Of a stretch of DNA of 64,000 bases, positions 5,593-10,498 are shown piece after piece. The notes under the pieces are model-generated. The model made no database searches, was not told where the DNA came from, and saw nothing but the letters and a program-made list of their open reading frames with translations. The stretch covers positions 1-64,000 of IMG/VR virus record IMGVR_UViG_3300025751_000015; one strand, given 5' to 3'. Each line of letters opens with the position of its first letter. The first letter of the stretch is position 1. Source of the stretch: a virus (taxonomy: Duplodnaviria > Caudoviricetes). Made by a program: the position numbers and the translations under genes.

Positions 5593-8262
5593 TTGAGTTA
5601 CGTAGATGCACTCTGGGATCGTGATAAAGACATTATCAAGGTTGTAGAGAGAAACAAAAAAGGCGAACGTGAGTTTCGCGAATTCCCCGCAAGATATGTA
5701 TTTTATTATGGCGATGCTAAAGGCAAGCAAAAAAGTACCTTTGGCGATAGCGTCAGTCGTGTTGTTTGCAAAAGTTGGAAAGACTTCTTAAAAGAACAAA
5801 AGATTAACAAGCACCGCGGATTATTTGAAGCAGATATCAATCCTGTATATAGATTACTAGAAGAAAACTATCTTGGACAAGATGCACCAAATCTAAATGT
5901 TGCGTTTTTCGATATTGAGGTAGACTTTGATCCAGAACGTGGGTACAGTTCACCGGAAGATCCTTTTACGGCCATTACTGCAATCACAGTACATCTACAA
6001 TGGCTTGATAGCCTTATTACACTAGCACTTCCGCCCAAAACACTTACTATGGAACAGGCGAAAGAAGAATGTAAGGATTTTCCTAACACATATCTGTTTG
6101 AAACTGAAGCCGAAATGCTCGACACGTTTTTGGACTTAATTAAAGACGCAGATATTTTATCAGGTTGGAACAGTGAAGGTTATGATATTCCATATACCGT
6201 AAACCGTATTACTCGTGTTCTTTCAAAAGAAGATACAAGACGTTTTTGTTTGTGGGATCAATATCCTAAGAAAAGAACATATGAAAAATATGGAAGAGAG
6301 CAGGAAACCTATGACCTAATAGGCAGACAGCATTTAGACAGTCTTGAACTTTATCGTAAATATACGTATGAAGAAAGGCACACTTATAGACTTGATGCCA
6401 TTGGTGAAATGGAAGTCGGTGAAAAGAAAACTGTTTATGAAGGTACCCTCGATCAACTTTATAACAATGACTTCCGAACGTTTATCGAATACAACAGACA
6501 AGACGTTGCACTACTGGACAAGTTGGACAAAAAATTAAGGTTTATTGACTTAGCCAATGAACTTGCTCATGCAAACACAGTTTTGCTACCCACCACAATG
6601 GGTGCTGTGGCTGTTACAGAACAAGCAATCATAAACGAAGCACACAGACGTGGTTATGTAGTTCCTAACAGAGTACATAGAGAACCAGGCTCTGCACAGG
6701 CGGCAGGTGCTTATGTTGCATATCCTAAAAAAGGATTGCATGACTGGATCGGTTCAATGGACTTGAATTCACTATATCCTTCCGTTATTCGTGCATTGAA
6801 TATGGATCCGGCAACCGTTGTGGGTCAACTGCGTCAAACACATACAGAAAACTATCTCAGCGAACAAATGAACTTTAAAAAGAAATCATTTGCGGCGGCT
6901 TGGGAAGGAAAGTTTGGTAGTCTTGAATATGACTACGTTATGGAACAACGCAAAGATATCGAGATCACAGTTGATTGGGAAAACGGCGAAAGTGATTCGT
7001 TAAGTGCCGCGGAAGTTTACAGACTTATTTTTGAAAGCAATCAACCATGGATGTTGAGTGCTAACGGTACTATTTTTACAACTGAGTATGAAGGTATTAT
7101 TCCTGGACTATTAAAGAGGTGGTATGCAGAACGTAAAGAAATGCAGGCAAAGAAAGTTGCATCACAAGACGCAGGTAACAAAATTGAAACTGCTTTTTGG
7201 GACAAACGTCAGTTGGTTAAGAAAATTAACCTTAACAGTTTGTATGGTGCTATTCTTAATCCTGGCTGTAGATTTTTCGATCATCGTATTGGTCAAAGCA
7301 CAACACTTACCGGAAGAAGCATTGCAAAACATATGGCTTCTAAGGTCAATGAGATTATAACAGGCGAATATGATCACACAGGTAAGAGCATTATCTATGG
7401 TGACACTGACTCTGTTTATTTTAGTGCATATACAAGTCTACGTGCTGAAATACAAAAAGGCGATATTCCGTGGACTAAAGAAAGTGTTACACAACTGTAT
7501 GATCAAATTTGTGAAGAAGCAAACACTACGTTTCCTAAGTTTATGGGCGATGCATTTCATTGTCCTAAGAGCAGAGGGGAAGTTATTGCGGCAGGTAGAG
7601 AAGTTGTTGGTATAAAAGGTTTGTTTATTACAAAGAAACGATATGCTGTATTGATTTATGATCTCGAAGGCTTTAGAACAGATACTGAAGGTAAGCCGGG
7701 CAAAGTAAAAGCAATGGGTCTTGATCTTAAGAGATCAGATACTCCTGTGTTTATGCAGGATTTCTTAAGTGAAGTATTGTTGGCAGTGCTGACAGGTGCT
7801 CAAGAAGATCAAGTACTAGAAATGATTACAGACTTTAGAACAAAATTTAAAGCACGACCAGGTTGGGAAAAAGGTTCACCCAAACGTGCAAATAATATTA
7901 CTGATTATCTTGCTAAACTTAAAAAGCAAGGTAAGGTTAATATGCCGGGTCATGTAAGGGCAAGTATCAATTGGAATACCCTTAAAGAAATGAACGGTGA
8001 CAAATTTAGTATGAACATTGTAGACGGTATGAAAGTTATTGTTTGCAAACTAAAAAATAATCCAATGGGATATACTTCGGTTGCGTATCCCACGGATGAA
8101 CTGCGTATTCCAAAATGGTTCCAAGAACTGCCATTTGCTGACGAAGAAATGGAATCAACCATTATCGACAACAAATTGGATAACTTGATTGGAGTTCTAG
8201 AATGGGATATAAAATCAACCGAACAGAAGAATACATTCAATAATTTATTTGACTTTGAATGA
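5593..8262 (+). CDS. Family B DNA polymerase with 3'-5' exonuclease
   Basis: Exo motifs FFDIE, GWNSEGYD and YNRQD; polymerase motifs DLNSLYPS, KINLNSLYG, YGDTDS and KKRY; no intein-sized insertion. Confidence 0.97.
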   Translation: MSYVDALWDRDKDIIKVVERNKKGEREFREFPARYVFYYGDAKGKQKSTFGDSVSRVVCKSWKDFLKEQKINKHRGLFEADINPVYRLLEENYLGQDAPNLNVAFFDIEVDFDPERGYSSPEDPFTAITAITVHLQWLDSLITLALPPKTLTMEQAKEECKDFPNTYLFETEAEMLDTFLDLIKDADILSGWNSEGYDIPYTVNRITRVLSKEDTRRFCLWDQYPKKRTYEKYGREQETYDLIGRQHLDSLELYRKYTYEERHTYRLDAIGEMEVGEKKTVYEGTLDQLYNNDFRTFIEYNRQDVALLDKLDKKLRFIDLANELAHANTVLLPTTMGAVAVTEQAIINEAHRRGYVVPNRVHREPGSAQAAGAYVAYPKKGLHDWIGSMDLNSLYPSVIRALNMDPATVVGQLRQTHTENYLSEQMNFKKKSFAAAWEGKFGSLEYDYVMEQRKDIEITVDWENGESDSLSAAEVYRLIFESNQPWMLSANGTIFTTEYEGIIPGLLKRWYAERKEMQAKKVASQDAGNKIETAFWDKRQLVKKINLNSLYGAILNPGCRFFDHRIGQSTTLTGRSIAKHMASKVNEIITGEYDHTGKSIIYGDTDSVYFSAYTSLRAEIQKGDIPWTKESVTQLYDQICEEANTTFPKFMGDAFHCPKSRGEVIAAGREVVGIKGLFITKKRYAVLIYDLEGFRTDTEGKPGKVKAMGLDLKRSDTPVFMQDFLSEVLLAVLTGAQEDQVLEMITDFRTKFKARPGWEKGSPKRANNITDYLAKLKKQGKVNMPGHVRASINWNTLKEMNGDKFSMNIVDGMKVIVCKLKNNPMGYTSVAYPTDELRIPKWFQELPFADEEMESTIIDNKLDNLIGVLEWDIKSTEQKNTFNNLFDFE

Positions 8263-8277
8263 TTTTCTAAATATAAT
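8249..8277 (+). promoter_or_regulatory. Sigma70 promoter TTGACT-N17-TATAAT with overlapping TAAATA (8268-8273)
   Basis: Direct match upstream of the clamp-like gene. Confidence 0.6.
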
Positions 8278-8300
8278 AGTAATAAGGAACGGAGAAAACT

Positions 8301-9032: not shown

Positions 9033-9043
9033 GGAGAATACAA

Positions 9044-10498
9044 TTGAACACTGATCTAACAAAAGAACAAAAAGACTACGCTATATTTTTGCCAGCGATC
9101 AGTGGTTTCTATGCGACTTTCATCGGTAAACAACGTAGAGAAGAATATGTAGACAAAAGTCGTATTCCTTTTCCTAACAACGAGATGGAAGGTCTTAATT
9201 GGTTCAACAAAAAAGACGGACTATTCAATTATCATTGGAGTCTGTATTCAGCAGGACACGCTGAATTAGATATCAATAAAGACGCACCTAAAGAACTTAT
9301 GATTCGTGAACGTGATCGCGAAAACAGTTGGTTGCTTGGTGACTCAGGTGGATTCCAGATTGGTAAAGGTGTATGGGAAGGTGATTGGAAAGATCCTAAC
9401 TGTCCTAAGGCTAAAAAGAAGCGTGAGCAGGTTCTTGCGTGGATGGATGCCTACATGGACTACGGTATGATCCTTGATATTCCTGCCTGGGTAGCACGTT
9501 CACCTGCAGGCGCAAAAGCAACAGGTATTGACAACTATCAAGATGCCGTTAATGCTACACGTATTAACAATGATTACTTTATGAAGAATCGTACAGGTTC
9601 TTGTAAGTTCTTAAACGTACTACAAGGTGAAAATCACGCTGATGCAGAAGATTGGTATCAGCAAATGAAAGACTACTGTGATCCTAAAAAATACACAGAT
9701 CACTTTAATGGTTGGTCGATGGGTGGTCAGAATATGTGTGATATTCATCTTGTGCTAAAGAGATTGGTAGCACTACGCTTCGATGGTTTGCTAGAAAAAG
9801 GCAAACACGACTTCATGCACTTCTTGGGTACATCAAAACTAGAATGGGCAACCTTACTTACAGATGTACAAAGAGCAGTTCGCAAGTATCACAATGAAAA
9901 CTTTACTATTACATTTGACTGTGCTAGTCCGTTCCTAGCAACAGCAAATGGTCAAATATATTGTGAACTTGAAACTAAAGATAGAAGCAAGTGGGTTTAC
10001 AGAATGGTTCCAAGCATTGACGATAAAGCACTTGCAACAGATACAACACCGTTTGGTCAAGCATTTGTGCGTGAAGGGAAACACGGAAGTTTTAAAGATT
10101 CTCCAATCACACAAAATTTACAAGCAAAAGATGTTTGTATATATGCACCAGGCGACCTAAATAAAATAGGCAAAGAAGGAAGAACAAGTTGGGATAGTTT
10201 TTCATATGCTATCCAGATGGGTCATAATGTATGGAGTCACATTAATGCAGTACAAGAAGCAAACAGACAGTACGATACTGGAATCGTTCCAAACATGCTT
10301 GTTGAAGAATCATTTAACAGGGTATTTTTTAGAGATGTTGTGGAAGCAATATTTGCAACATCAAATAGAGACGAAGCAGAAGCAGTTATAGAAGAGTTTT
10401 CGAGATTCTGGATGTCAATTATTGGCACTAGAGGAGCAACAGGTAAAAAAACCGTAAACGCAAGTACGCAATATGCGAACTTATTTGAGGAGGTATAA
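9044..10498 (+). CDS. dpdA: TGT-fold transglycosylase, DpdA-like (7-deazaguanine insertion into DNA)
   Basis: LLGDSGGFQIG (TGT DSGGFQ motif), MILDIP, VLQG, GWSMGG, HFLG and ITFDCASP; clustered with folE, queD-like, queE and yhhQ. Confidence 0.8.
   Translation: MNTDLTKEQKDYAIFLPAISGFYATFIGKQRREEYVDKSRIPFPNNEMEGLNWFNKKDGLFNYHWSLYSAGHAELDINKDAPKELMIRERDRENSWLLGDSGGFQIGKGVWEGDWKDPNCPKAKKKREQVLAWMDAYMDYGMILDIPAWVARSPAGAKATGIDNYQDAVNATRINNDYFMKNRTGSCKFLNVLQGENHADAEDWYQQMKDYCDPKKYTDHFNGWSMGGQNMCDIHLVLKRLVALRFDGLLEKGKHDFMHFLGTSKLEWATLLTDVQRAVRKYHNENFTITFDCASPFLATANGQIYCELETKDRSKWVYRMVPSIDDKALATDTTPFGQAFVREGKHGSFKDSPITQNLQAKDVCIYAPGDLNKIGKEGRTSWDSFSYAIQMGHNVWSHINAVQEANRQYDTGIVPNMLVEESFNRVFFRDVVEAIFATSNRDEAEAVIEEFSRFWMSIIGTRGATGKKTVNASTQYANLFEEV

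Follow-up and report, generated by a model that had tools for sequence, protein, structure and literature searches.

A putative clamp-docking tail on a DpdA-like transglycosylase encoded beside the DNA polymerase and predicted sliding clamp of a jumbo-phage fragment

Several proteins of phage T4 reach the sliding clamp gp45 by a peptide at their extreme C-terminus. On the polymerase gp43, on gp33 and on gp55, the C-termini that bind gp45 are hydrophobic-acidic, closely alike and interchangeable, although the linkers bearing them diverge; RB69 gp45 has been crystallised with the last 11 residues of its polymerase (PMC2988020). The 7-deazaguanine modifications of phage DNA are held to be made post-replication by DpdA enzymes (PMC10516641). 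Here we analysed the first 64 kb (the window) of the 84-kb IMG/VR virus record IMGVR_UViG_3300025751_000015, a fragment of an uncultured marine jumbo phage with a CheckV completeness of 24%, in which the gene of a DpdA-like transglycosylase follows the genes of a DNA polymerase and a predicted sliding clamp. A first-pass annotation of the window had proposed that this transglycosylase rides the clamp by a polymerase-like tail, and had known of no such description for DpdA; the papers searched on bDpdA and DpdA1-4 (PMC6884629, PMC10516641, PMC10164549) likewise make no mention of a clamp. Close relatives are very abundant among marine metagenomes, Tara included. A megablast search of the locus against phage genomes gave no match.

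As shown in Table 1, the polB gene, a 243-aa open reading frame (ORF) and a 484-aa ORF are co-oriented and separated by intergenic gaps of 38 and 11 nt, with no terminator-like site found in the 11-nt gap between the second and the third. This is the order polymerase, clamp-like, DpdA-like given by the first-pass annotation, and the C-terminal peptides it quoted for the polymerase, the 484-aa protein and a HIT-family protein farther downstream were all reproduced by translation. The polymerase ends in EQKNTFNNLFDFE, closing in TFNNLFDFE, and the transglycosylase ends in STQYANLFEEV. Tails of this type also close the polymerases in every related locus and in the phages PA5oct, Vibrio 2.275.O, Phosso, Atu_ph07, SCTP-2 and EJP2. 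The polymerase gene itself consists of two ORFs in several relatives (L001, 685-5911; L004, 966-3935; L087 and L090), the two halves being separated in PA5oct by the gene of a Hef-like homing endonuclease; the clamp-binding-type tail of the split polymerases remains on the C-terminal half.

The 243-aa ORF had no Pfam or NCBIfam match and no useful match among PDB sequences, and the only sequence-search match was phrog_12062, a PHROG of unknown function. An AlphaFold2 (AF2) model, built on an alignment of 33 relatives with 32-94% identity, showed two similar beta-alpha-beta domains with a predicted local distance difference test score (pLDDT) of 93.1 and a predicted TM-score (pTM) of 0.90. Every top match of the model in the PDB, examined by Foldseek, was PCNA (E 2e-11, TM ~0.7), and VIA-align superposed it on PCNA with Z 18.4 and a root-mean-square deviation (rmsd) of 3.3, aligning 223 of the 243 residues over the span 1-243. 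Homologs lie directly 3' of the polymerase gene in PA5oct (Pseudomonas), 2.275.O (Vibrio), Phosso (Sinorhizobium), Atu_ph07 (Agrobacterium), SCTP-2 (Salicola) and EJP2 (Escherichia), an arrangement constant across these six jumbo-phage lineages. Four fuller relatives, PA5oct, Vibrio 2.275.O, Phosso and the 290-kb G001, each carry a clamp-loader-like gene, and the Pfam family of T4 gp45 has no match in any of them; because of these two observations the PCNA-fold family is taken to be the clamp of the relatives. No clamp-loader-like gene was found within the 84-kb record, which is 24% complete. These results suggested that the ORF at 8301 is, judged by its predicted fold, a sliding clamp, as the first-pass annotation had supposed.

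The 484-aa protein had no match in Pfam, NCBIfam, PHROGs or PDB sequences, and the Pfam model of tRNA-guanine transglycosylase (TGT), PF01702, was not found anywhere in the record. The family of the protein is large, with 974 representatives at 50% identity (E < 1e-3). Its AF2 model, made with an alignment of 50 diverse members, reached pLDDT 92.1 and pTM 0.91. The top 50 Foldseek matches were all tRNA-guanine transglycosylases (E 8e-7, probability 1.0), and superposition on 2ash gave Z 19.6 and rmsd 4.3 over 306 residues, with the (beta/alpha)8 barrel of TGT. In a profile comparison by hhalign, the family matched E. coli TGT with a probability of 88% (E 3e-6, 178 columns); D100, D145 and D292 were paired with the catalytic/substrate aspartates D89, D143 and D264, and the motifs DSGGFQ, LD.P and FDC..P were aligned. 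Among the 50 diverse members D100 and D292 never vary, and D145 is nearly invariant. The protein lacks the CxCxxC zinc site known from TGT, and the family alignment holds no invariant Cys.

Membership in a named DpdA subfamily was not adopted. The profile comparison with phiST DpdA3 gave a partial match only (probability 76%, 83 columns), and assignment to DpdA3 was dropped as the match was weak and partial; the DpdA1 of phage 9g matches phrog_887, which the window protein does not. The 484-aa protein thus appears, from its modelled fold and its catalytic residues, to be a TGT/DpdA-type transglycosylase, and these features together with the 7-deazaguanine gene set described below bear out the earlier description of it as DpdA-like. 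The subfamily to which it belongs lies outside the coverage of Pfam, PHROGs and NCBIfam.

Residues 463-484 of the transglycosylase have a pLDDT below 50 and are predicted to be disordered. The tails were compared in 80 viral loci of 65-96% identity, in which the order polymerase-clamp-transglycosylase is constant. All complete polymerases of these loci terminate in TFxxLF[DE]F-type tails, and in the transglycosylases [FY]xxLF is retained with constant spacing past a conserved GTRG..GKK linker, the motif standing either at the very C-terminus or before an acidic extension of 25-30 residues. The motif is found again in six distant clades of phages, in which the identity of the catalytic domain is only 28-47% and the linker is variable; conservation of the LF tail across homologs, named by the first-pass annotation as a check on its proposal, was found. 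In polymerase and transglycosylase, respectively, the tails read ...LFDF and ...LFDF plus one residue in L088-L096 (~39% identity), ...KLFNY and ...SLFEF in L087, ...DLFDW and ...DLFGW in Vibrio 2.275.O, ...SLFGW and, internally ahead of an acidic extension, ...SLFDV in PA5oct, and ...DLFTF and ...GLF in Phosso.

The likeness of the two tails, which had been noticed in the window only, was well above what shuffled tails give. Among 102 full-length family representatives clustered at 50% identity, the motif hydrophobic-x-x-[LM]F was present within the last 12 residues of 19, compared with 1.3 in shuffled tails (standard deviation 1.1, maximum 6), and within the last 40 residues of 36, compared with 6.0. 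Flanks of the polymerase and transglycosylase tails also match better within than between clades, the observed sum being reached by 15 of 720 pairings in a test of just six clades with hand-chosen representatives. In the 84-kb record itself, [LMF]F occurs in the last 9 residues of 5 of the 87 gene products, three of which are the polymerase, the transglycosylase and the HIT protein. Loose versions of the motif are common, as 33 of the 435 tails of G001 carry [LMF]F in their last 8 residues, and the resemblance could in principle come from chance or from a composition bias of C-termini in an AT-rich phage. The excess of 19 over 1.3, the conservation past a variable linker in six clades and the distribution of the motif between clamp-linked and clamp-less relatives given below all speak against such an origin, which we find scarcely credible; the conservation data already contradict it. 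The first-pass annotation had likened the tail both to T4 gp43 and to the bacterial beta-clamp motif. Its kinship with the hydrophobic-acidic type of T4 gp43 stood, and the beta-clamp part is a loose likeness, the clamp being PCNA-like.

A scan of bacterial genomes, seeded with a tail-less subgroup of the family, yielded ~60 family members together with some phage contigs binned into metagenome-assembled genomes. The members on bacterial chromosomes come from Sphingomonadales, Rhizobiales, Rhodobacterales, Burkholderiales and others. Where a clamp gene is present in the locus, the tail motif was found in 85 of 90 distinct proteins (43 terminal, 42 internal with the acidic extension); among bacterial-chromosome members with no clamp gene, it was found in 1 of 55 distinct proteins (Fisher p ~1e-32, relatedness ignored). 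The tail thus tracks the clamp gene, as a clamp-docking peptide predicts. The tail-less members (L180-L259) are chromosomal genes of Sphingomonas, Sphingobium, Rhizobium, Azospirillum, Limnohabitans, the Roseobacter group and other bacteria, with no polB or clamp gene nearby.

The first-pass annotation had named a complex model of clamp and peptide as a further check. The clamp was modelled together with residues 455-484 of the transglycosylase, using self-built alignments and three controls. The complex reached an ipSAE of 0.71 (runs 0.77, 0.64 and 0.71), compared with 0.02 for the best control; the runs share at least 63% of their contacts, and the pLDDT of the partner is at least 49. In the model, tail residues 470-484 touch clamp residues 38-42, 123-130 (the interdomain connector loop), 197-199, 220-222 and 237-243 (the C-terminal ILPAQSK), and Y477, L480 and F481 are central to the contacts. 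In the alignment of relatives P239 and A240 of the clamp are invariant. The modelled site is the pocket in which partners of PCNA-type clamps canonically bind, and the prediction supports binding of the tail to the clamp.

The tail could also dock on another replisome or phage protein, such as the polymerase, single-stranded DNA-binding protein (SSB), helicase or clamp loader, and not in the clamp pocket. The tails are hydrophobic and acidic, like the tip of SSB, and the T4 gp43 tail has also been reported on the open gp45 subunit interface rather than in the face pocket (PMC2988020). We consider another partner unlikely, since the polymerases are homologs of T4 gp43, whose tail is a known clamp epitope, the clamp gene stands between the polymerase and transglycosylase genes in every locus, the complex model beats its controls in the canonical pocket, and the motif is absent where no clamp gene is found (1/55). 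A role of the tail in turnover or localisation, for example as a degron for the phage ClpP or as a packaging tag, would fit with a ClpP gene at 18885-19445 and with the detection of the PA5oct clamp homolog in virions; it is extremely improbable given that the motif is common to the polymerase and is predicted to fit the clamp pocket. To our knowledge, the motif is unlike the known ClpXP tags.

Genes of 7-deazaguanine synthesis lie downstream of the transglycosylase (Table 1). The Pfam models of QueC, PTPS, Radical_SAM and QueF had no match in the 84-kb record, with its completeness of 24%, and the QueE-like protein was matched by its PHROG only. In PA5oct and Vibrio phage 2.275.O, QueE, QueF and YhhQ genes adjoin the transglycosylase homologs. 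PA5oct DNA has been reported to resist restriction enzymes with G in their sites, in a paper that names no DpdA (PMC12191111). The enzyme might instead be a tRNA-guanine transglycosylase acting on phage or host tRNAs, with a tail unrelated to DNA modification, and its best structural matches are indeed tRNA enzymes. We regard this as very unlikely: the enzyme has neither the zinc site nor the tRNA-binding extensions of TGT, its gene stands between those of replication and those of deazaguanine synthesis, PA5oct DNA appears to be G-modified, and a clamp-type tail would be sensible only for an enzyme that acts on DNA.

Table 1 Features of the polymerase-clamp-transglycosylase locus and of its downstream neighbours in the window
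Feature	Position	Strand	Evidence
Family B (T4 gp43-type) DNA polymerase, 889 aa	5593..8262	+	Pfam DNA_pol_B 2.8e-34, DNA_pol_B_exo1 1.5e-16; phrog_262 1.3e-190
Polymerase C-terminal peptide with TFxxLF[DE]F motif, presumed clamp-binding epitope	8221..8259	+	Translation; role by analogy with T4/RB69 gp43 (PMC2988020)
Sigma-70-like promoter match (11/12), overlapping the polymerase stop, just 5' of the clamp gene	8249..8277	+	Consensus match only
Predicted PCNA-fold sliding clamp, 243 aa	8301..9032	+	AF2 model, Foldseek, VIA-align
TGT-superfamily DpdA-like transglycosylase (by predicted fold), 484 aa; catalytic barrel ~residues 1-460	9044..10498	+	AF2, Foldseek, VIA, hhalign
Disordered linker and C-terminal peptide of the transglycosylase, residues 463-484; motif Y477-V484 at 10472-10495	10430..10495	+	pLDDT, conservation, predicted contacts
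FolE (GTP cyclohydrolase I)	15076..15762	+	Pfam 2e-40
YhhQ/Vut_1-type transporter	15778..16434	+	Pfam 3.3e-20
HIT-family protein with QTDLFE near its end, weak clamp-client candidate	20761..21192	+	Pfam HIT 9.6e-12
QueE-like radical SAM (S-adenosylmethionine) protein	21243..22136	+	phrog_2076 1e-51

Taken together, we consider the following explanation of the locus as a whole to be fairly probable. The transglycosylase would insert into DNA a 7-deazaguanine base supplied by the products of the neighbouring FolE/QueE-type genes. Its barrel would continue through a disordered linker of ~20 residues into an [FY]-x-x-L-F-acidic peptide of the polymerase-tail type, and this peptide would dock in the hydrophobic pocket of the clamp that its interdomain connector loop and C-terminal residues make up, in parallel with the docking of T4/RB69 gp43, gp33 and gp55 on gp45. 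The clamp on replicating phage DNA would then carry the transglycosylase along the fresh duplex, and such tethering would make the post-replicative exchange efficient and biased toward phage DNA. In the interpretation of the first-pass annotation, the clamp identity, the enzyme class, the conservation of the motif and the docking, as modelled, held up. The function at the fork has a different standing, as we infer the coupling of base exchange to replication and the selectivity for phage DNA from the docking hypothesis.

Several points weigh against this explanation. The transglycosylase has no match to a curated TGT/DpdA model and lacks the TGT zinc site, and DNA rather than tRNA is its presumed substrate from the gene context. 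The motif stands inside the protein, ahead of the acidic extension, in about half of the relatives, and a few relatives carry degenerate motifs. The clamp-linked and clamp-less groups compared above are largely two clades, so the comparison covers few independent events. The score of the complex may partly be memory of solved PCNA-peptide complexes, and the calibration of the ipSAE mark, which 58 of 80 solved complexes and 2 of 110 mismatched pairs attained, holds only roughly here because self-built alignments were used. The clamp homolog of PA5oct (EST35_0314, L001:5992-6738) is annotated as a structural protein from electrospray ionisation tandem mass spectrometry (ESI-MS/MS) of virions, which is odd for a clamp. 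Finally, neither in vitro nor in vivo experiments reproduced a proposed interaction of the T4 alpha-glucosyltransferase with gp45 (bioRxiv 10.64898/2025.12.06.692756), a precedent that, by analogy, warns against assuming clamp tethering.

A tail of another kind was found in the DpdA1 lineage, which is unrelated to the window transglycosylase. In the Enterobacteria phage 9g (L278, 36-4644, minus strand), with which DpdA1 was founded and whose dpdA has been validated experimentally, the genes run in the order FolE, dpdA, a clamp (phrog_947, processivity factor) and the polymerase, and the DpdA ends in ...LQDLFDE, a tail like the beta-clamp motif. All 120 of the 120 closest DpdA1 relatives (P0396-P0515; 70-99% identity) end in [IVL]-[QR]-[ED]-L-[FYL], mostly QELF, past variable residues. 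The last 16 residues of the 9g DpdA lie outside its PHROG profile match, and the 9g polymerase has no tail of the DpdA1 type. These C-termini suggest that two unrelated DpdA lineages may each have acquired clamp tethering. That phage DNA-guanine transglycosylases, perhaps also other phage DNA-modifying enzymes, use such tethering as a general strategy is a tentative idea that we hold to be somewhat doubtful; if it were true, delivery by the clamp would explain the high occupancy of the post-replicative base exchange and the sparing of host DNA. The helicase of 9g (L278:9945-11948, minus strand) ends in ...DFDDDIPF, a tip that we take to be the same as the C-terminus of E. coli SSB, and this suggests mimicry of the SSB interaction tail.

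Two further proteins were considered as clamp clients. The HIT-family protein, for which the first-pass annotation had pointed to LQTDLFE, does carry this motif seven residues before its C-terminus. Its conservation was not borne out: Q-x-[DE]-[LM]-F-E is kept in only ~18 of 80 relatives, many of which are shorter and end right after KQKY. The HIT protein was therefore not counted as a third client, the motif being poorly conserved. In G001, a D12-class N6-adenine DNA (Dam-like) methyltransferase (L261:3927-4886, minus strand) ends in ...HLFSF, which resembles the polymerase (...KLFNY) and transglycosylase (...SLFEF) tails of the same phage. Its last ~10 residues lie beyond the part common to homologs in unrelated phages, the alignment stopping at ~304-312 of 319, and no close relatives of this methyltransferase were found. 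This methyltransferase could be a second client of the clamp that modifies DNA, or the likeness may be chance.

The acidic extension that follows the internal motif (in L007-L086 relatives and PA5oct) closes in a conserved LDE-x-KLE-x-LE-type motif; the window copy lacks the extension. We considered the extension as a shared tag for a second hub and dropped the idea, as a search of the loci, the record and G001 found it on 35 transglycosylases and on one other ORF. A subgroup of the family (P0327, P0337, P0359, P0383 and P0385) has a different conserved tail, W-x-T-D-[LF]-E-E-F followed by acidic/aromatic residues. For the single proteins P0281, P0327 and P0339 the scan found no viral loci.

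Other genes of the window lie among or near those of base synthesis. A class III aminotransferase is encoded at 11713-12990, and the modification cluster includes a 167-aa protein (17385-17888) that matches a cysteine dioxygenase PHROG (1.8e-34). The stretch 18332-19849, between the deazaguanine and HIT genes, encodes a phosphoribosyltransferase-domain protein, the ClpP protease mentioned above and a small ORF whose match to HhH-GPD glycosylase is sub-threshold.

A clamp-docking tail would be a concrete mechanism by which such an enzyme could reach each of its targets in a 300-kb genome and act on phage DNA: delivery by the replisome toolbelt, as for DNMT1 in eukaryotes. Deletion of the tail, or exchange of LF for AA, would provide a handle for separating catalysis from targeting in PA5oct, Vibrio phage 2.275.O and 9g. 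If the docking holds, a base-exchange enzyme is added to the known clients of viral sliding clamps. The analysis also names a large and abundant marine protein family that is unannotated in current databases.

The eukaryotic enzymes DNMT1 and UNG2 alter bases on newly replicated DNA and are tethered to the PCNA pocket by PCNA-interacting peptide (PIP) boxes. The system proposed here differs from them in its motif and enzyme class, in its viral clamp and in its bacterial host. Like the alpha-glucosyltransferase proposal for T4, it would place a phage DNA-modification enzyme at the fork by way of the clamp; unlike that proposal, it comes with a conserved polymerase-like tail and a docking model that beat its controls, both known in silico. 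A modification enzyme held by the clamp has thus been proposed before, so far without a solid phage example. With bDpdA and DpdA1-4 (PMC6884629, PMC10516641, PMC10164549), the window enzyme shares the TGT superfamily, a phage gene accompanied by FolE/QueD/QueE-type genes and the expected exchange of guanine for a 7-deazaguanine derivative in DNA after replication. It differs from them in its length of 484 aa, compared with 259-317 aa, in that neither Pfam TGT nor the PHROG families hit by 9g DpdA match it, and in the missing CxCxxC.

The T4/RB69 clients resemble it in a short hydrophobic-acidic peptide at the C-terminus, in a flexible divergent linker and in the presence of such peptides on several proteins of one phage. 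The predicted docking is likewise on the clamp face that bears the protruding C-terminus, and the polymerase of the locus is a gp43 homolog. Unlike in T4/RB69, the clamp matches PCNA and not the gp45 Pfam family, the motif is internal before an acidic extension in half of the relatives, and the proposed client is a base-exchange enzyme instead of a polymerase or transcription factor. The gp43-type clamp client is thus the closest mechanistic relative of the proposed system, in which the cargo is a DNA base-exchange enzyme.

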